Sequence record: MT711525.1
Reading direction: 5' to 3' (one strand)
Length of the DNA: 40,825 bases
DNA from: Escherichia phage vB_EcoS_fKuEco01
In this document: positions 8,616-15,836 of the stretch, piece by piece
Position numbering within the stretch: position 1 is the stretch's first letter
Layout of the letters: every line of letters begins with the position of its first letter
Position numbers and translations under genes: made by a program
Notes under the pieces: model-generated
Told to the model about the DNA's origin: nothing
What the model saw: only the letters and a program-made list of their open reading frames with translations
The model's database searches: none

Positions 8616-9028
8616 TGGGCTACTTTGAGGACTTAACAAAAGCGTTCGATGTTCCGCTGGTAGCCTTCGGAACCGCCAACGGCATCAAGGTCGCGCTTGA
8701 AAACATCGACGCGCCGACGTCAACCGATACGCCATATCTGGCAAGTTACATGTTACTGGCGGATACCGAGCAAGCAGATTTGTTCTTCACGGAACAACGC
8801 GCGGGTGTTTATCAGGTCGACATTAACTACGCATCGGTGAAAGGTAGCGCGCCAATCAATAAAATGGCAGACTTACTTAACACGGCATTCAAAGCAGGTA
8901 AGTCATTTTCTCGTAACGACATCTGCGCCGAGGTTCAATCGGTTAGCCTGGGGCCGCTGATTGTAGAAAACGGATGGGCCAAACGACCATTGTCAATTAA
9001 CTTTATTGCATTCACCAAGAGGCTGTGA
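8612..9028 (+). CDS. hypothetical tail protein (possible tail terminator)
   Basis: 138-aa ORF immediately upstream of the major tail protein. Confidence 0.45.
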   Translation: MMGYFEDLTKAFDVPLVAFGTANGIKVALENIDAPTSTDTPYLASYMLLADTEQADLFFTEQRAGVYQVDINYASVKGSAPINKMADLLNTAFKAGKSFSRNDICAEVQSVSLGPLIVENGWAKRPLSINFIAFTKRL

Positions 9029-10197
9029 ATATGGCTACAACTCCTTTTAAGGGCGCGAATACTGCGCAATTCTATGTGGCAGAAACTACCCCTGGCGTAA
9101 CACCGACTAACCCGGTCTGGTCGCCATTGCGTAACACAGGTGGCGTTCCTGCCATTACCCGCGACACGCTGACCTCCAACGAACTGGACGGCAGCCGTGA
9201 AACTACGTCAATCCGCACCGGTAACAAGCAGGTTAGCGGAGAATACGCTATTGAGCTTAGCTCGAAAAGCCAGGACGACTGGCTGGCGGGAGCTTTAGGC
9301 TCTACATGGCAATCCGGTAGTTCTCTGACCGGGCTATCAATTACCGTCGCGCCTGCAGGCAAGACCTTTACCCGTGCCGAAGGTAGCTTTATTTCTGACG
9401 GCGTTGAAGTGGGCGACCTGATTGCGTTTACCGGCTTAACCGGTGACAACGCAAAACCGTTTATCGTAACTGCAGTAGAGGCGCGGGTAGTGACCGGGGC
9501 GGGTATCCAGCATACCCTGACCACAGAGACAGTAACTACCGCCGCTAAGACAGGGGATAAACTGGAAACGGGAGGCCAGTGCAAGACGTTCTCTATTCTC
9601 ACCTGGTACAAAGGCCAGTGCGGCGGGACTGACGCGTACACACTAACCAAAGGCGTGGAAGTTTCTGGTTTTACCATCGAACAGGCTGTTAACGCTATGG
9701 TAACTGGCAGCTTCCCGTTCATCGGTCGCAGTCAGGAGATTCTCACCACGCAGCCGTCTGGTTCTGATTTCTCCTCTGTTACGTTTGGTGACGAGCCATT
9801 CTCCTCGGTCGATGTTTCTGTGTTCGACGGTTCTACGCCGTTGCGTTGCGACAGCCTGACCATCACCAACGACAACAGCGCGTCCGCACAGTTCGAACTC
9901 GGCAACACTAACGTAGCGTTTGTGGAGCGTAGCCGAGCAGCTAACACCTTCTCCATCTCCGGTAAGCTGTACGACATGGCGATGATTCAGAAGTTTATCA
10001 ACGAGCAGCAGGTGGAGATTAACTCTATTCTGGCTGGGGTAAACGGGGCTATGTCTTTCAGTTTGAAACGTGCAGAACTTACGGCGGTTACACCTGAGAT
10101 TGGAGGACCTGAGTCAATCACTCAGTCTATTGAAGGCCAGGCTACTGGCAACCAGTACCAGTCGTCTATTGTTATTCAGCGTATCACATACGCATAA
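9025..10197 (+). CDS. major tail protein
   Basis: 390-aa Thr/Ser/Gly-rich beta-type protein upstream of chaperone pair and tape measure. Confidence 0.6.
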   Translation: MNMATTPFKGANTAQFYVAETTPGVTPTNPVWSPLRNTGGVPAITRDTLTSNELDGSRETTSIRTGNKQVSGEYAIELSSKSQDDWLAGALGSTWQSGSSLTGLSITVAPAGKTFTRAEGSFISDGVEVGDLIAFTGLTGDNAKPFIVTAVEARVVTGAGIQHTLTTETVTTAAKTGDKLETGGQCKTFSILTWYKGQCGGTDAYTLTKGVEVSGFTIEQAVNAMVTGSFPFIGRSQEILTTQPSGSDFSSVTFGDEPFSSVDVSVFDGSTPLRCDSLTITNDNSASAQFELGNTNVAFVERSRAANTFSISGKLYDMAMIQKFINEQQVEINSILAGVNGAMSFSLKRAELTAVTPEIGGPESITQSIEGQATGNQYQSSIVIQRITYA

Positions 10198-10225: not shown

Positions 10226-10780
10226 TTACAAACCTAATCTTAAAGCAATGCCTATAGCGTTCGATTTAACGTAACCCGGTATGATGTAGGTGTCATAATC
10301 TTTTACACCATCAATATCGTACAGGTAACCGCGGCTGTCCCCTTCAAACGTATGGCCGTCTCTGTGCAAGCGGACGATTCTCACATCATGCCCCGCGGCA
10401 ACGATAGGGGCTACTTCGCTGGCGAACCCGCCATCAGACACCACAAAAACTTCGTCGCCGTCGGGCAAGTTTCCGGCAAGATACTTACCGAAATAATCAT
10501 CACCGAATACCGGTTTAATGAATTGCTCGGAAATGGCAATCATGAACTGACGCCGAGACAACCCGTTAAGGAAACCCTCTGGCTTTTCTTTCCGCGCCCG
10601 GTCGTCGTAGCCGTCGAGAAACTCGCGGTAAGCATCCTGGCCTAACGCAGCCATAGCAATATTGAACATCGGATTCTTGAAACTGGCGACACCCTTCGCA
10701 AAGCCCATTTCTACCAGCGCCCTAGCAAGTGTGTCTTTCCCGCAGCCCGCAGGACCATTAAGAATAATTACCTTAGCCAT
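10226..10780 (-). CDS. P-loop kinase, dNMP-kinase-like
   Basis: 184 aa; N-terminal Walker A GPAGCGKDT resembling T4 gp1-type nucleotide kinases. Confidence 0.65.
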   Translation of the reverse strand: MAKVIILNGPAGCGKDTLARALVEMGFAKGVASFKNPMFNIAMAALGQDAYREFLDGYDDRARKEKPEGFLNGLSRRQFMIAISEQFIKPVFGDDYFGKYLAGNLPDGDEVFVVSDGGFASEVAPIVAAGHDVRIVRLHRDGHTFEGDSRGYLYDIDGVKDYDTYIIPGYVKSNAIGIALRLGL

Positions 10781-11265
10781 TATTTATCACTCCCATGTGG
10801 TTTTAAGTGTGTAGAGTTCCCGTTACAGTCGTATTCAGTAACTGCGTGAGTGGTTATGCCGAGTTCGCGGAAATGCTTTATTACCGCTGGAGAGTCGTCG
10901 AATGCACACAAGATTCTCTCCGGCCCAATAGCACGCAACACCTCTTCTTTAATTACGATGTCTTTTCTGTTGTCGTGTTTGCTGCGCATGATTAACTGAT
11001 AAAATTCGACGCGGTGGCGCTGCAACCACATTCTGGTTTCTTTTTCCGCGTCATCACTACGGCCTGTTAAGATAATAACGGCATAGCGACGATTAAGGGC
11101 GTTACACAGTTCGATGTTATCTTTAATGGGTGCATCGTCTTTGCACGCCATGTTAAATGGTTTCCACGCCCAGGTTTCGCCGTAGTTATCTTTCGGCAGC
11201 AGGTGTAAACGATGAGTACCATCTGCCAATGTCCCGTCTAAATCGAAAATCACAATATCTTTCAT
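10780..11265 (-). CDS. HAD-family phosphatase resembling the T4 Pnkp 3'-phosphatase domain
   Basis: 161 aa; N-terminal DLDGT motif and a C-terminal segment matching the T4 polynucleotide kinase/phosphatase domain as recalled. Confidence 0.65.
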   Translation of the reverse strand: MKDIVIFDLDGTLADGTHRLHLLPKDNYGETWAWKPFNMACKDDAPIKDNIELCNALNRRYAVIILTGRSDDAEKETRMWLQRHRVEFYQLIMRSKHDNRKDIVIKEEVLRAIGPERILCAFDDSPAVIKHFRELGITTHAVTEYDCNGNSTHLKPHGSDK

Positions 11266-12392
11266 CCAAGCATCTCCGGTGAAATAGTTAAACGTGCGAC
11301 CTCGCCATATTCGGCGCTATAAGTAATTACGTTTGCACTGCGGCCCGACATCCACCCACCGCGGGAGGCATATGCATCTTTAGCCGCGAGAGTGCGGTGT
11401 TGCTCAACAATCATGTTACGGCTTTCTACAATCTTTTGGTGGTGCAGGTGACCCACGTGGGCGTAGCTGTAAACACTCTCGCCGAACGCTTTGCGGAACT
11501 TGGCAATCATAACCGGTTCGATAGCGTCGAATCGTGCTTTATGCCCATGATGGAAGAACAGCGTCGTTTTGCCGTGTTGCACCATCTTGTAAACATCCGG
11601 CGACGTATCGACGAACACACGCGGTTCATTGTCGTACAGCGTACTAAACATCTCAGCTAACCAAATCATTCCGCTTTCGTCGTGGTTACCTTGCACGATA
11701 AGCAAGCGAACATTTTTATGTTTAACGAGAGCCATATCAATGACACGGCGGACCATACGAATCATGTAGCGTACAAGTTTCTGATAGCGGGCGTCAGCGT
11801 CAAGAACATGACCACTGGCAGGTGTAACGGCGTCCAGACTATCGAAATGCGCAAGGTCGCCCAGCAGATTAATAACTCCTGTTCCGGCATCCGGTGCTTT
11901 CTGGAACGCTGCGTCGAACCAGCGGGAGAACAGGTCTTCCGCAATCTTCATGTCCCAGTCGTCGCCGCTCTCGTCAGCCCAGGCCAGCATACCGAGATGG
12001 AAATCAGACACAGTGTAAAGGTTGAGTAGCTTGTCGTCTCGTTTGGCGCGAACGGCTTTAACAGGTGCAACTGGTGTAATCTCCGACTTCATGCCTTCGA
12101 TTACGGCTTTCATCAATTCAACCTGACGTTCGGCATCGGTGTCGGTCTTAACCCATTGCAACTTGGTGTTGCCAAACTCATCCACCAGTGATGATGTTCC
12201 TTTAATCTTGTAGCCGTCCGGTACAAGGTAACTAACGTCACGCCCGTGGCCTACACCTTTCTTAGCCAGCTTCGCTTTACGTATACGAATAACGCGGTCG
12301 GAGATGCCGTATTTACGGGCGATGTCGATATTCTTCATACCGGCGTTCAATTCTTCCTGTAACTGTTCGTCGGTTATTTTCTTCCTGGCCAT
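11262..12392 (-). CDS. HTH domain fused to calcineurin-like metallophosphoesterase (SbcD/Mre11-like motifs)
   Basis: 376 aa; motifs DFHLG, GDLAHFD, GNHDE, HHGH, GHLHH; basic N-terminal helix-turn-helix-like region. Confidence 0.7.
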   Translation of the reverse strand: MARKKITDEQLQEELNAGMKNIDIARKYGISDRVIRIRKAKLAKKGVGHGRDVSYLVPDGYKIKGTSSLVDEFGNTKLQWVKTDTDAERQVELMKAVIEGMKSEITPVAPVKAVRAKRDDKLLNLYTVSDFHLGMLAWADESGDDWDMKIAEDLFSRWFDAAFQKAPDAGTGVINLLGDLAHFDSLDAVTPASGHVLDADARYQKLVRYMIRMVRRVIDMALVKHKNVRLLIVQGNHDESGMIWLAEMFSTLYDNEPRVFVDTSPDVYKMVQHGKTTLFFHHGHKARFDAIEPVMIAKFRKAFGESVYSYAHVGHLHHQKIVESRNMIVEQHRTLAAKDAYASRGGWMSGRSANVITYSAEYGEVARLTISPEMLG

Positions 12393-12429
12393 GCTTATTC
12401 CTCGTGTTTAGGATTTGTCCTATACTAGC

Positions 12430-12636
12430 TCACTTCTCTTTGACATTCGAGTTGCACGCCCAGATTAAGATAAATACCCACGGCAGCAGAACCCAACCAA
12501 GAAACAGATTAGCCATGAATATCGCTAACTTCGCTTTATGGCTACGGAAGTACGCAACCAGGAAAGGCGCGAAATAAGCTAGCAGTGCAAACAGAATTAA
12601 GGAAACTGGTAAACTTGACATTTTAAACCCCTTCAT
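12430..12636 (-). CDS. small two-TM membrane protein, resembles superinfection-immunity (Imm-type) proteins
   Basis: 68 aa (63 from second ATG at 12621); hydrophobic helices with LGWxxxPW-ILIWA-like motif; first gene after the island promoter. Confidence 0.5.
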   Translation of the reverse strand: MKGFKMSSLPVSLILFALLAYFAPFLVAYFRSHKAKLAIFMANLFLGWVLLPWVFILIWACNSNVKEK

Positions 12637-12651
12637 TGTTGGTGTAAGTGA

Positions 12652-12680
12652 ATAGTACCCTATTATATTGGGGTGTGCAA
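12652..12680 (-). promoter_or_regulatory. early-type promoter TTGCACAC-17-TACTATTCACTTA driving the minus-strand island
   Basis: reverse complement of 12645-12690 matches the promoter units at 34582-34610 and 35875-35903. Confidence 0.55.
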
Positions 12681-12788
12681 GTAATGTGATAGAATAAGTT
12701 TGCGCCTAGTGTCGCACACGAAAAGCGGGTGGTTCCCGTCTGGCGCATTTATCGTTAACCTGTAACCTCTTAACCAAAGGATTAAAGA

Positions 12789-13205
12789 ATGAAACTTTCT
12801 GATTTTTATTTCGAAGAGAAAGCACTGGTAGGCAAGAAGATGCCCATTCTGCTGCCAAACGGCGAAGACTCCGGTGAATGGCTTAACGTTGTAAGTCCCG
12901 ATGCGGATGTCGCCGTTAAAGCGGGGCGTGCTTTCATTATTGCGTACCGTCGCGGGTTGGCGCGTTTCGAAGAACTGGAAAAAGCCGCCAAAGAATCCGG
13001 CGACTATACTGAATATAACCTGGCTATTAACGAACTGGCGGAAGACCTCAACCGGCAACTCGCGGCAGAAGTCGTAAACGGCTGGAGCTTTGATGAGCCT
13101 TTCTCTAAAGAAGCATTTAACAAATTGCTGGACCAGTTCAAGGCATTAGGCACACAGGTAGCAGCGTTCCATAACGCTGAGCGCAAAGCATTACAGGAAA
13201 AGTAG
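12789..13205 (+). CDS. tail assembly chaperone (G-like)
   Basis: 138-aa acidic protein immediately upstream of tape measure; ends at a shifty AAG-TAG context. Confidence 0.6.
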   Translation: MKLSDFYFEEKALVGKKMPILLPNGEDSGEWLNVVSPDADVAVKAGRAFIIAYRRGLARFEELEKAAKESGDYTEYNLAINELAEDLNRQLAAEVVNGWSFDEPFSKEAFNKLLDQFKALGTQVAAFHNAERKALQEK

Positions 13206-13237
13206 ACGCGCTGTACAGGTTCGCCACCTATGAGTTT

Positions 13238-13570
13238 GTGGATAAGCATAAAATCAGAGAGTTTGATTCTATAGCCGACGGACACGAACAGGCGCTTATC
13301 GCGATGGGTGTAATCGATAAGAAAAAACGTGCAGCGCGACGGGGTGGGCCAGAATGCCCGCCCCTTTTTATATCCACCTTCGAGACGTACTGCGACATTA
13401 AGTTTACGCGACACGTGCGCGAGGACGCTGTAGTATTGTTCGCAAGAGAATCCGTTACGTGGCAAGACCTGAAAGCCTATCTCGATGTTACGCAAAAACA
13501 GCTTAGCCTGTTCGAGATAGACATTATCATGGGCTTAGAAGCAATCTTTGAAGGTAGAAATCATGGCTGA
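13238..13570 (+). CDS. tail assembly chaperone frameshift extension (GT-like)
   Basis: -1 frame relative to 12789-13205, open from 13181; overlaps the upstream ORF by 25 nt; ends overlapping tape-measure start. Confidence 0.5.
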   Translation: MDKHKIREFDSIADGHEQALIAMGVIDKKKRAARRGGPECPPLFISTFETYCDIKFTRHVREDAVVLFARESVTWQDLKAYLDVTQKQLSLFEIDIIMGLEAIFEGRNHG

Positions 13571-15836
13571 TACCGCTAGCTTGATCGTACGAGTATCATC
13601 GACCGGCGTCGATAAAACCACATCACAACTGAACGGGCTTACCAAAGCCGCGGGGGCCGCCGCCGCTGCCGTTGTCAGTCTGGAAACTGCCAAACAGGTG
13701 TTCAGTGCGCTGGTGGACTCCCAGCGCAACTTCGATAAGCTGAACTCCGGCCTCATCACAATGACCGGGAGCGCTGAGAACGCGGCTAAGGCTTTCAGCG
13801 TCCTGCAACAGTTCGCAAAAGAAACCCCATATGGCCTTAACCAGGCGGTGGAAGGCTTTACTAAGCTGGTGGCCCTCGGCCTGAACCCAAGCAAAGAGGC
13901 GTTAATCTCCTACGGCAACACCGCCGCTGCGATGGGTAAAGACCTTAATCAGATGATTGAGGCTGTGGCGGACGCCAGTACATTTGAGTTTGAGCGACTG
14001 AAAGAGTTCGGTATCAAGTCTTCCCAACAGGCAGATACCGTTTCGTTCACGTTCCGCGGCGTCACCACCACGGTTAAAAAGAACTCCGAAGAGATTCAGA
14101 AATACCTGCTAAACATCGGCAACACCGATTTCGCCGGGGCGATGGAGACGCGCTCTAAGACGATAGACGGTCAGTTGTCGAGCCTGGCGGACTCCTTTGA
14201 TGGCCTTGTACTTGCGGTAGCGCAATCCGGTTTCGGCGACGCCGTAGGTGAGCAAGCCGCGAAGGCAGAAGACGCTATTTCGGCACTCACCGACGCCATT
14301 GCGTCTAATGAGATAGCCGCCACGCTCCAGGATTGGGTGACACTGTTCAATGAATCATTCAAGTTTATTTCTGATGCCTTAAACGACCTGGCATACGATA
14401 CCGAGGACAAATCCGCGGATATGTCAGACTCGCTGGGTACTATACCGGATGCTATCCGTGAATGGTTGCCTGACATCCAGCAGACGTTTCACGAGGTTAT
14501 TGCGTGGTTCCAGCGCATTGACGATTACGCCGTAGCGTTAGGTCAGACCCTCGCAGACGTGTTTGATCCGAGCAAAACGGCAGCACTCACATTTAAAAAC
14601 CTGACCGCAGAAGCTGACGCCGCATACGCCGCCAGCATAAAACGCGCCGAGGCCGAATCACAGGCCATCACCAACAGGTCTAAGCAGCGTAAGAAAGAAA
14701 TTGAGGAACAGCGCAAGCAGTACAACGAGCGTAAGAAGCAAGAAATAGACTTAGCCAGCCTTGTTAATAAAAAGGGCGGAACTGGTGGGGTGGGGACAAC
14801 CGACGATAAAGCAGCAAAAGCCGCCGCCAAGAAAGCAGAGCAATTGCGGAATCAGGCGCAAGATTACCTCGACACTTTGGCCCGTCAGAACAACGACGAG
14901 TTAAAGGCTATCGACGCGCAGGAACAGCAGAAACTGGCTAAGGCAAAAGAGTTCTACAGCCAGGGCGCGTTGTCCCTGAAAGAATATGAACAAGCTAAAA
15001 CAGCTATCGTCCTCGAAGCCGGGCAAAAACGACAAGATGAACTGGATAAACGCCAGAAAGAAGCCCAGGAAAAGCAGCAGAAAGGTGACGACTTCATGGC
15101 TCAGATTATGGGTCAGAACGCTACTGAGCTTGAGCTTCTCGACATCCAGGAACAGCAGAAGTTGGCGGTCGCAGATAAGTACCGCGAACAGGGTCTGATT
15201 AGCGAGAAGCAGTATCAGGCCGCGCTTAACGCCATCAACGAGCAGTACGCCACGAAACGTGCCGATGCAACGGCAACGGCCTTTGGTAACATGGCCTCAA
15301 ACATCGGGTCTGCGTTGGGTGAGGCTTCTGGCGCGTACAAGGCATTCGCTATCGTACAGGCCACTATCGCCACGTACACCGCAGCTATTGAGGCGTACAA
15401 GTCAACGGCAGCTATCCCTGTAGTTGGCCCGTTCCTGGCCCCTGTAGCCGCTGCCGCTGCCGTTGGTGCAGGTATGGCGCAGGTTTCCGCTATCCGGTCC
15501 GCGCGTGAACAGGGCGGACAGTTATCCGCAGGGCAGGCTTCCACCATCGCAGAACGCGGTAAACCAGAAGTTATTATGCCGGCTGGCGCATCTCGTGTTC
15601 GCACAGCACAGCAGATGAAAGAAATTATGGGGCAAAACGGGTCTTCTTCCGGCCCGTCTAATGTTACTATCGTAAACAACACGAGTTCTCAAATCGGCAA
15701 CGTATCCACTGAGCAAGATGATGAAGGCCGTTTGCGAATCATCATCGAGGAGCAGGTGGCTGCCTCTTTGCAGAACAGCAACAGCAAGATTAGCAAGGCC
15801 CGCAAAGCCACAAGAAATGCGCCGGGGTTTAAATAA
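13563..15836 (+). CDS. tape measure protein
   Basis: about 757 aa, Ala/Gln/Lys-rich with long coiled-coil segments; ATG 13563 after GAAGGTAG; track start is TTG 13548. Confidence 0.8.
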   Translation: MADTASLIVRVSSTGVDKTTSQLNGLTKAAGAAAAAVVSLETAKQVFSALVDSQRNFDKLNSGLITMTGSAENAAKAFSVLQQFAKETPYGLNQAVEGFTKLVALGLNPSKEALISYGNTAAAMGKDLNQMIEAVADASTFEFERLKEFGIKSSQQADTVSFTFRGVTTTVKKNSEEIQKYLLNIGNTDFAGAMETRSKTIDGQLSSLADSFDGLVLAVAQSGFGDAVGEQAAKAEDAISALTDAIASNEIAATLQDWVTLFNESFKFISDALNDLAYDTEDKSADMSDSLGTIPDAIREWLPDIQQTFHEVIAWFQRIDDYAVALGQTLADVFDPSKTAALTFKNLTAEADAAYAASIKRAEAESQAITNRSKQRKKEIEEQRKQYNERKKQEIDLASLVNKKGGTGGVGTTDDKAAKAAAKKAEQLRNQAQDYLDTLARQNNDELKAIDAQEQQKLAKAKEFYSQGALSLKEYEQAKTAIVLEAGQKRQDELDKRQKEAQEKQQKGDDFMAQIMGQNATELELLDIQEQQKLAVADKYREQGLISEKQYQAALNAINEQYATKRADATATAFGNMASNIGSALGEASGAYKAFAIVQATIATYTAAIEAYKSTAAIPVVGPFLAPVAAAAAVGAGMAQVSAIRSAREQGGQLSAGQASTIAERGKPEVIMPAGASRVRTAQQMKEIMGQNGSSSGPSNVTIVNNTSSQIGNVSTEQDDEGRLRIIIEEQVAASLQNSNSKISKARKATRNAPGFK

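Follow-up and report, generated by a model that had tools for sequence, protein, structure and literature searches.

The window, a stretch of 40,825 nucleotides (nt) of Escherichia phage vB_EcoS_fKuEco01 (sequence record MT711525.1), carries two overlapping reading frames, G and T, of a tail assembly chaperone. Comparison with related loci makes it almost certain that a programmed −1 ribosomal frameshift connects the two frames. The best explanation of the locus, which we consider likely to be correct, is a frameshift of the tail chaperone G/GT type at the tetramer A_AAG, stimulated by a long-range RNA helix. The frameshift itself is not new, and GenBank already annotates the joined product. 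The long-range helix seems to be undescribed, as far as the literature was searched.

Reading frames and protein families

The 3′ end of the G open reading frame (ORF) reads ...GCA TTA CAG GAA AAG TAG, with AAG at 13200–13202 and the stop codon at 13203–13205 (Table 1). The −1 frame contains a TGA at 13178–13180 and hence is open from 13181 to the TGA at 13568–13570, overlapping the final eight codons of G; all these coordinates agree with the original prediction, which was made from the sequence alone. Joining the frames at AAG gives a predicted GT fusion, join(12789..13202, 13202..13570), of 260 residues with the junction …ALQEK|VDALYRF…. The fusion is letter-for-letter identical to ADA82267.1/YP_009168804.1, deposited as "tail assembly chaperone [Escherichia phage K1G]", ORF22B. 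The programmed −1 frameshift that the original prediction proposed for the two chaperone ORFs is the best-supported reading of the locus, and its fusion is the K1G protein already in the databases.

Table 1. Positions of the features of the chaperone locus in the window
Feature	Position	Strand	Remarks
G-like tail assembly chaperone ORF	12789..13205	+	0-frame product of 138 residues; ORF list, PHROG, Pfam
Shift site G_GAA_AAG	13196..13202	+	core tetramer A_AAG 13199–13202
0-frame stop TAG	13203..13205	+	abuts the shift site on its 3′ side
T segment, −1 frame	13202..13570	+	122 codons and stop; C-terminal part of the predicted GT fusion
Helix 5′ arm (CGCGCUGUAC)	13207..13216	+	begins 4 nt past the shift site; frozen synonymous sites
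Helix 3′ arm (GUGCAGCGCG)	13329..13338	+	in the variable linker of T; complementarity, covariation
Terminator-like hairpin GGGGUGGGC-cagaau-GCCCGCCCC then UUUUUAUAU	13341..13373 (hairpin 13341–13364)	+	inside the T frame, 2 nt past the 3′ arm
Tape measure protein gene	13563..15836	+	PHROG 1538, E 1.2e-192; ATG 13563

Both parts of the predicted fusion belong to families of tail assembly chaperones. The G ORF matches positions 1–138 of the 259 positions of the PHROG 15027 profile (tail assembly chaperone; E 7.7e-71), and the T frame matches positions 135–259 (E 8.4e-71). The two frames thus match successive parts of one profile, which indicates that PHROG 15027 was built from fused proteins. 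In Pfam, G matches Phage_TAC_4 (PF08748) with 26.5 bits against a curated cut-off of 21.1, and T matches Phage_TAC_18 (PF23812) with 67.7 bits against a cut-off of 27. A search for solved structures related by sequence found none.

The gene order is that of the G/GT class, with G and T directly upstream of the tape measure gene and downstream of a major tail gene. As originally predicted, the T frame overlaps the start of the tape measure gene, the ATG at 13563 preceding the TGA at 13568–13570 (ATGGCTGA), and the annotations of K1G and fTaEco01 place the start at this ATG. Over 12700–13650 the sequence is 100% identical to that of Escherichia phage K1G, of vB_EcoS_fTaEco01, and of several records labelled "Kagunavirus"; it shares 94–97% identity with approximately 100 further Kagunavirus coliphages (subfamily Guernseyvirinae).

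The comparative set consisted of 80 related loci from IMG/VR and several GenBank loci (Kagunavirus, Jerseyvirus, Cornellvirus, and Serratia phage Tsm2). It contained 87 complete loci, 77 of them distinct, with protein identities to the window of 43–100%. All the complete loci have the same pair of ORFs, in which G has 138 codons (134 in one locus) and ends in NNA AAG TAR; the alignment with related chaperone pairs that the original prediction had proposed as a check gave this ending in 77/77 distinct loci. The −1 frame reads K-V-x-A-L… for 121–123 codons in each complete locus and runs into the start of the tape measure gene. The two-ORF arrangement is far beyond chance and bears out the earlier assignment to the conserved G/GT arrangement.

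Conservation of the shift site

Within the eight-codon overlap, re-pairing of a tRNA after a −1 slip is perfect only for AAG to AAA (13199–13201). The preceding GAA can re-pair on GGA with a G·U pair in the middle position, and the other six codons cannot re-pair. The terminal AAG had been noted before as the sole slippage-compatible site. Two loci (L047 and L048) have a TAA in the −1 frame that ends 8 nt before the G stop; with the frame open for only 7 nt ahead of the stop, the shift is confined to the last two codons of G.

To measure how far synonymous sites are invariant, 33 representatives with less than 95% identity to one another were used. The sequence A AAG TA, at positions −4 to +1 relative to the stop, is invariant in these representatives, and positions −4 to −1 each carry 2.0 bits. 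The codon before AAG varies (GAA, GCA, GTA, GGA, and AAA, encoding E, A, V, G, and K), but its third base is A in 33/33. The terminal lysine codon is likewise AAG in every representative and AAA in none. Across the whole G ORF, codons 137 and 138 are the only ones with degenerate third positions that never vary. This combination of a wobble A before the last codon and the use of AAG over AAA reads as the signature of selection on the tetramer A_AAG.

In E. coli, no other Z_ZZN tetramer is nearly as shift-prone as A_AAG (PMC4066793), because the single E. coli tRNA-Lys (mnm5s2U34), which reads both AAA and AAG, pairs better with AAA (PMC4066793; PMC5009743). In E. coli reporters, A_AAG produces a shift of 5.6% with a pseudoknot 5 nt downstream and approximately 0.15% alone (PMC4066793). 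Sites of the type NNA_AAG are in use in B. subtilis cdd and in IS1222 (PMC5009743). The heptamer of the window, G_GAA_AAG, does not have the canonical form X_XXY_YYZ; only its tetramer is canonical. This departure weakens the claim of a canonical heptamer, not that of a frameshift. Canonical heptamers do occur in the same position, with the adjacent stop retained, in loci L016 (G_GGA_AAG) and L072 and L076 (A_AAA_AAG). The original prediction had called the slippery site non-canonical and weak. The first description holds for the heptamer; the second does not, as the site contains the most shift-prone E. coli tetramer and is followed after 4–5 nt by a conserved helix.

The stop codon adjoins the shift site in all 33 representatives, as TAG in 21, TAA in 12, and TGA in none, and the base after it is A in 24 and C in 9. 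The codon TGA is never used although it would preserve Val139 in the −1 frame. The bias in the stop codon and the next base may reflect a weak termination context, or merely a preference for certain residues at position 140 (D, K, A, E, N, and T). Readthrough of the zero-frame stop was considered and rejected, since the extension would be 3–49 codons long and is not conserved. A search for a Shine-Dalgarno-like stimulator upstream of the site found no conserved affinity, and the best mean value, −2.4 kcal/mol, lies over the slip site itself.

A long-range RNA helix downstream of the shift site

The two codons that occupy positions +5 to +10 past the stop, for alanine and leucine, read GCG and YUG in each representative and are thus frozen at their synonymous sites. 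Twenty other conserved codons with four- or six-fold degeneracy vary freely, with at most 0.88 bit at position 3. The frozen codons belong to the 5′ arm of a helix that in the window pairs 13207–13216 with 13329–13338 and comprises 10 base pairs, including one G·U, with an energy of −20.0 kcal/mol. A search for a local stimulatory hairpin or pseudoknot within 40–150 nt of the site gave mean z-scores of approximately 0 to −1, and RNAalifold (ungapped) returned only a trivial 3-base-pair stem. The local search missed the helix because the partner is more than 110 nt away and at positions that depend on the clade.

The complement of the 10–12 nt starting at +4 or +5 is found distally in each of the 33 representatives, and the loci can be divided into two groups by its position. 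In group A, which includes K1G-like Kagunavirus, Jerseyvirus, and others, the 3′ partner is located at approximately +125 to +135, in the variable linker of T. In group B, which includes fFiEco02-like Kagunavirus, Cornellvirus, Tsm2, and others, it is located at +198 to +208, in the segment encoding F-I-Q-R. Both types of partner occur at non-homologous places inside the genus Kagunavirus, as exemplified by K1G and fFiEco02. Comparison of the clades suggests that the 3′ partner has switched position, whereas the 5′ arm has kept its distance to the slip site. Loci L046, L047, and L050 carry both partners (+117 to +128 and +198 to +208 after the G stop), and look like an intermediate of partner switching.

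In 77/77 distinct loci, the helix begins on its 5′ side at +4 or +5, that is, 4–5 nt after A_AAG. In a fixed register, at least eight contiguous pairs are formed in 68 of the 77, and the remainder have six or seven pairs or start at +6. The analysis looked for a stable structure approximately 5–9 nt 3′ of the shift motif, and we count the helix as such a structure with its observed start at 4–5 nt. The contiguous-helix score is 9.58; 1646 positional controls gave 6.63 ± 1.09, and among 52 control offsets the highest score was 7.53. Partition-function folding of +3 to +230 gave the core pairs a probability of approximately 1.0 in 30/33 representatives, the window included. The fold of 13206–13375 has a minimum free energy (MFE) of −61.5 kcal/mol and a z-score of −3.52, which none of 200 shuffled sequences equalled, and the helix is present in both the MFE and centroid structures. 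An Rfam search of 13000–13700 gave no match at E≤1.

The helix is backed by covariation. In Jerseyvirus, GCGUUGUUUC pairs with GAAACAACGC; in group B, GCGCUGUAUGA pairs with UCAUACAGCGC; in L040, GCGCUGUUGAA pairs with UUCAACAGCGC; in L072, CGCUGCAUAA pairs with UUAUGCAGCG; and in L085, UAC/GUA replaces UAU/AUA. In the ungapped alignment of group B, 88% of the cells are paired, compared with 16–48% when the partner is slid, and four pairs are changed on both sides, a result not reached by any of 500 shuffles. In the alignment of group A, 82% of the cells are paired compared with 22–51% after sliding, and the covariation score is 0.371 compared with at most 0.137. At pair 18:141 of group A, ten sequences have C-G and four have U-A. 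In addition, G·U pairs are present on the + strand, which argues for a constraint at the level of RNA rather than DNA.

Proposed mechanism of the frameshift

In the proposed mechanism, the majority of ribosomes would read 12789–13202 and stop at the UAG at 13203, which would yield the 138-residue G protein. A minority would slip one base back at A_AAG (13199–13202), where tRNA-Lys would move from AAG to AAA and the P-site tRNA would re-pair partially or not at all. The slipped ribosomes would continue through GUA GAC GCG CUG… to 13570 and produce the 260-residue G-T fusion. If it acts as lambda gpGT does, this fusion would tether the tape measure protein and the major tail protein to each other. 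The slip would be promoted by the helix 13207–13216/13329–13338, while the ribosome translocates against the resistance of this helix. When the P site holds GAA and the A site AAG, the first pair of the helix follows the first P-site base by 11–12 nt, which would place it at the mRNA entry and helicase site of the ribosome. It is at this distance from the P-site base that the ribosomal mRNA helicase meets structure, and the stimulators of dnaX and IS3 sit there. The efficiency of the shift is expected to be in the low percent range, and a shift of a few percent is of the order needed for a lambda-like GT:G ratio of approximately 1:30 (PMC5009743). The adjacent stop may add a pause. We speculate that it also makes the non-shifted ribosomes end at the foot of the helix, so that they would open only the 5′-most few pairs of a helix that refolds slowly. 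What speaks most strongly for a role of the helix in the frameshift is that the distance of its 5′ arm from the slip site is fixed while its 3′ arm moves between clades, as a stimulator would require; the geometry matches that of classical −1 stimulators.

Several points weigh against this explanation. The literature searched contains no experimental evidence for a GT product, or for its ratio to G, in any Guernseyvirinae phage. The heptamer is not X_XXY_YYZ, and re-pairing in the P site is imperfect (GAA to GGA) and essentially nil in the relatives with GCA. The RNAduplex energy of the arms, −18.1 compared with −12.4 ± 3.3, was matched by 5.6% of the controls; this energy is a weak statistic, because bulged and G·U-rich duplexes raise the background, and was replaced by the contiguous-helix length, fixed-register counts, and covariation. 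The arms encode conserved residues (A-L-Y, and F-I-Q-R in group B), and their complementarity is therefore partly held by protein constraint. They are also 110–190 nt apart, and the helix may be unfolded when the first ribosome arrives. Finally, the helix could serve the stability of the mRNA, the protection of a poorly translated stretch, or the control of tape-measure expression.

Such functions of the helix are part of an alternative that we regard as unlikely, in which the frameshift is real and the helix is not its stimulator. The slip would then be caused by A_AAG and the adjacent stop alone, by slippage in the P site while the stop waits in the A site, and the helix would stabilise or insulate the mostly untranslated T, or, in concert with the terminator-like hairpin directly after it in the window, regulate tape-measure expression. 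The alternative is consistent with a stop that is always adjacent, never TGA, and followed by A or C, with the known effects of "shifty stops" (PMC5009743), and with folding of the far-apart arms that may lag behind translation. However, the efficiency of approximately 0.15% that A_AAG alone reaches in E. coli reporters (PMC4066793) speaks against it, as does the placement of AAG in the P site, which would put the first bases of the helix already inside the ribosome. Furthermore, the constant 4–5 nt between the slip site and the 5′ arm, kept in every distinct locus despite the moved 3′ partner, is hard to explain unless the distance matters.

Alternative origins proposed for the T product

The remaining alternatives concern the origin of the T product. 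The first ATG, GTG, or TTG of the T frame is found anywhere between +8 and +140 across the 33 representatives, and five of them have none in the first 49 codons. The overlapping −1 ORF thus has no positionally conserved start, and its Shine-Dalgarno-like affinity is weak. The protein sequence is conserved from the junction onward as K-V-x-A-L-Y/F-x-F-A, and K138, V139, A141, L142, F145, and A146 are invariant in a six-sequence alignment of fusions (A1). Alignments obtained with tblastn of T span residues 1–122 down to 40% identity, and they include residue 1 onward at 40–55%. On these comparative grounds, both the GTG at 13238 and the YUG at 13211 were rejected as starts of T.

Termination at the UAG followed by re-initiation at the YUG 6 nt downstream (CUG 13211–13213 in the window, UUG in Jerseyvirus) would produce a separate T, and we consider it improbable. 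The YUG at +8 to +10 is invariant, the UUG of Jerseyvirus is a legitimate start codon, and separate ORFs starting at YUG have been annotated (Bas74_0026, SE2 gp55), a 119-residue form being present in databases. However, 28/32 tabulated representatives have CUG, at which bacterial translation starts very poorly, and no conserved Shine-Dalgarno sequence precedes the codon, the mean duplex with the anti-Shine-Dalgarno sequence being no better than −2.4 kcal/mol. Re-initiation also leaves unexplained the invariant synonymous A at −4 and the use of AAG over AAA. The invariance of YUG is accounted for by the helix, in which C8/U8 covaries with a partner G/A, and distant homologues with a canonical T_TTT_TTC clearly make fusions.

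Independent initiation at the GTG at 13238, which would give a 110-residue ORF and had been named in the original prediction as the start that could refute a frameshift, is very improbable. This GTG is the first canonical start codon of the −1 frame in the window, and the 110-residue form is the call of most automatic annotations. In relatives more than 95% identical to the window (L003, L015, L020, and L022), though, the codon is GTC or GTT, and it is ATA in Jerseyvirus and GTA in Cornellvirus. The sequence upstream of it (cctatgagttt) contains no Shine-Dalgarno sequence. The 12 residues before it are conserved across the subfamily and covered by the tblastn alignments at 40–55% identity, and many relatives have their first start codon only at +92 to +101 or lack one within 49 codons. 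As judged from these comparisons, independent initiation cannot account for the conserved T frame.

A join produced by transcriptional slippage (stuttering of RNA polymerase), for which the short A run at the junction (GAAAAG) might be cited, or by sequencing error can practically be dismissed: the run is only four A, or three in the GCAAAG relatives, far below the length needed for transcriptional slippage, and the two-frame arrangement recurs in 87 independently assembled loci.

Comparison with known frameshift systems

The locus is similar to the G/GT region of phage lambda. There, too, two ORFs directly precede the tape measure gene, the downstream one lies in the −1 frame without a start of its own, and a −1 shift of low frequency towards the end of G produces a G-T fusion, with an A-site AAG read by tRNA-Lys. 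A close relative, locus L016, carries the exact heptamer of lambda, G_GGA_AAG. Unlike lambda, the window has G_GAA_AAG with imperfect re-pairing in the P site, and where its relatives have GCA or GTA the site is essentially a tetramer. The site in the window is also the last sense codon, abuts the stop, and is followed by a conserved long-range helix. To our knowledge, no defined stimulatory structure has been described for lambda G/GT. In contrast to the lambda-type gene order, the major tail gene in the window is split from G by a 2.4-kb reverse-strand cassette. The conservation of the G/GT arrangement of tail assembly chaperones was reportedly described by Xu, Hendrix and Duda in 2004.

The B. 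subtilis cdd gene uses an upstream Shine-Dalgarno-like stimulator, whereas the window lacks a conserved element of this kind and has as candidate stimulators the downstream long-range helix and the adjacent stop. The sites of cdd (A_CGA_AAG) and IS1222 (G_CGA_AAG) otherwise resemble that of the window: the slip depends on a shift of tRNA-Lys from AAG to AAA and does not require re-pairing at the 5′ codon, and its efficiency is low without a stimulator (PMC5009743, PMC4066793).

The systems of E. coli dnaX, IS3, and IS911 are bacterial −1 shifts at sites ending in A_AAG with an RNA structure approximately 5–6 nt downstream, and the heptamer A_AAA_AAG of L072 and L076 is identical to that of dnaX. 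The construct of Sharma et al., which combines A_AAG with the IS3 pseudoknot at 5 nt (PMC4066793), is a near replica of the spacing in the window. The stimulators of dnaX, IS3, and IS911 are local hairpins, pseudoknots, or three-way junctions, whereas the arms of the Guernseyvirinae helix are 110–190 nt apart, and unlike these cassettes the window has neither a canonical heptamer nor a Shine-Dalgarno element. Pairing of the sequence beside a shift site with a distant downstream segment is known from barley yellow dwarf virus (BYDV) (PMC7618472). However, in this eukaryotic RNA virus the bulge of a local stem-loop pairs 4 kb away, whereas the phage mRNA contains a plain helix of 8–16 base pairs that closes a domain of 110–190 nt. 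A predicted chaperone slip site right before a stop is also present in gp18/gp19 of Burkholderia phage KL1 (GGGAAAC, then TGA; PMC3483164); KL1 differs from the window in its canonical heptamer and in the local stem-loop predicted there.

Distant homologues of G, 27–32% identical, are found in Queuovirinae, Knuthellervirus, Pamexvirus, and Serratia phage Tlacuache. Five of their loci (L089–L093) were inspected, from Alteromonas phage R7M, Vibrio phage 1.207.B, Pseudomonas phages PMBT14 and phiH2, and Serratia phage Tlacuache. In 5/5, a −1 ORF, unannotated, runs to the start of the tape measure gene, and four have a canonical T_TTT_TTC located 18–54 nt before the G stop, some with local hairpins. 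None of the five records annotates a joined product, and those of PMBT14 and phiH2 have no second ORF annotated at all. The cassette of A_AAG, stop, and long-range helix is thus, as the compared sequences suggest, a derived variant found so far in Guernseyvirinae-like loci only.

The terminator-like hairpin and the gene neighbourhood

The terminator-like hairpin within T has a stem of nine pairs, eight of them G-C, and a 6-nt loop, and is followed by UUUUUAUAU, so that it combines a GC-rich stem-loop with a U tract. It belongs to the MFE fold of 13206–13375. A hairpin and a T run are present at the same place in 17/33 representatives, and are absent from Jerseyvirus and Cornellvirus. The outer stem shows compensatory changes (AAG/CTT, GAG/CTC, and ACG/CGT), whereas its core GGGC/GCCC is forced by the motif G-P-E-C-P. 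The covariation is only moderately clean, with a score of 0.241 compared with 0.230 for a slide by +3. The hairpin lies in a stretch left untranslated by most ribosomes and could there attenuate the transcription that continues into the tape measure gene. A paper on the Kagunavirus transcriptome contains nothing on the chaperone locus or on transcript ends at the hairpin.

The elements of the locus may form a composite cassette specific to Guernseyvirinae, an idea that we offer tentatively and regard as possible rather than probable. It would consist of A_AAG at the last sense codon, an obligatory UAR stop, a 4–5 nt spacer, and a helix closing a domain of 110–190 nt. The stop would exist so that the non-shifting ribosomes, approximately 95% or more, end at the foot of the helix and never cross the slowly refolding stimulator. 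The 3′ arm would have been re-invented at two places, and the hairpin, present in approximately half of the lineages, would attenuate transcription into the tape measure gene, perhaps relieved by frameshifted ribosomes.

The mechanical ORF list places the start of the tape measure gene at the TTG at 13548, whereas the deposited annotations use the ATG at 13563, which has GAAGG upstream. The major-tail-like gene (9025–10197) is set apart from G by the reverse-strand genes at 10226–12636. This 2.4-kb cassette contains four genes, which encode a 184-residue ORF with a P-loop-like motif, a polynucleotide kinase/phosphatase, a metallophosphoesterase or DNA repair exonuclease, and a superinfection immunity protein. 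The operon of G, GT, and tape measure therefore needs its own promoter in 12637–12788. A simple sigma-70 scan of the + strand of this segment found no promoter. No phage-encoded tRNA that might alter the decoding of lysine codons is present in the window.

Annotation of the locus and implications

A coding sequence joined from two pieces is annotated over these ORFs in K1G (ORF22A/ORF22B), fTaEco01, fFiEco02, and Salmonella phage Shemara. The annotation is inconsistent, and other records give a free second ORF that starts from the GTG (110 residues) or from a CTG or TTG right after the stop. In the databases, the free 110-residue T with the GTG start is recorded on 465 contigs, and the 260-residue fusion on only three. 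One copy of the 110-residue T is labelled as a protein of a metagenome-assembled genome (MAG) of Cutibacterium avidum. One genome announcement claims that no slippery sequence is present (PMC6776780). Mis-annotation of the T locus is the rule in public databases.

The proposed helix also affects how the frameshift can be detected. The reporter segment 13170–13240 suggested with the original prediction excludes the 3′ arm at 13329–13338 and could therefore yield a false negative. Trypsin cuts at K138, so the junction peptide that was to be found by mass spectrometry is lost in a tryptic digest; the predicted diagnostic junction peptide from digestion with Glu-C is KVDALYRFATYE. Short reporter fragments and scans for local folding miss long-range stimulators.

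The comparative result settles the inconsistency of the annotation, in which many Guernseyvirinae records list a free "chaperone" ORF of 110–119 residues, and provides a family-wide rule for joining the frames, NNA_AAG|TAR, in phages that are widely used therapy candidates against E. coli K1 and Salmonella. If the proposed explanation is true, Guernseyvirinae would offer a natural, evolutionarily validated phage case of tetramer-type −1 frameshifting.

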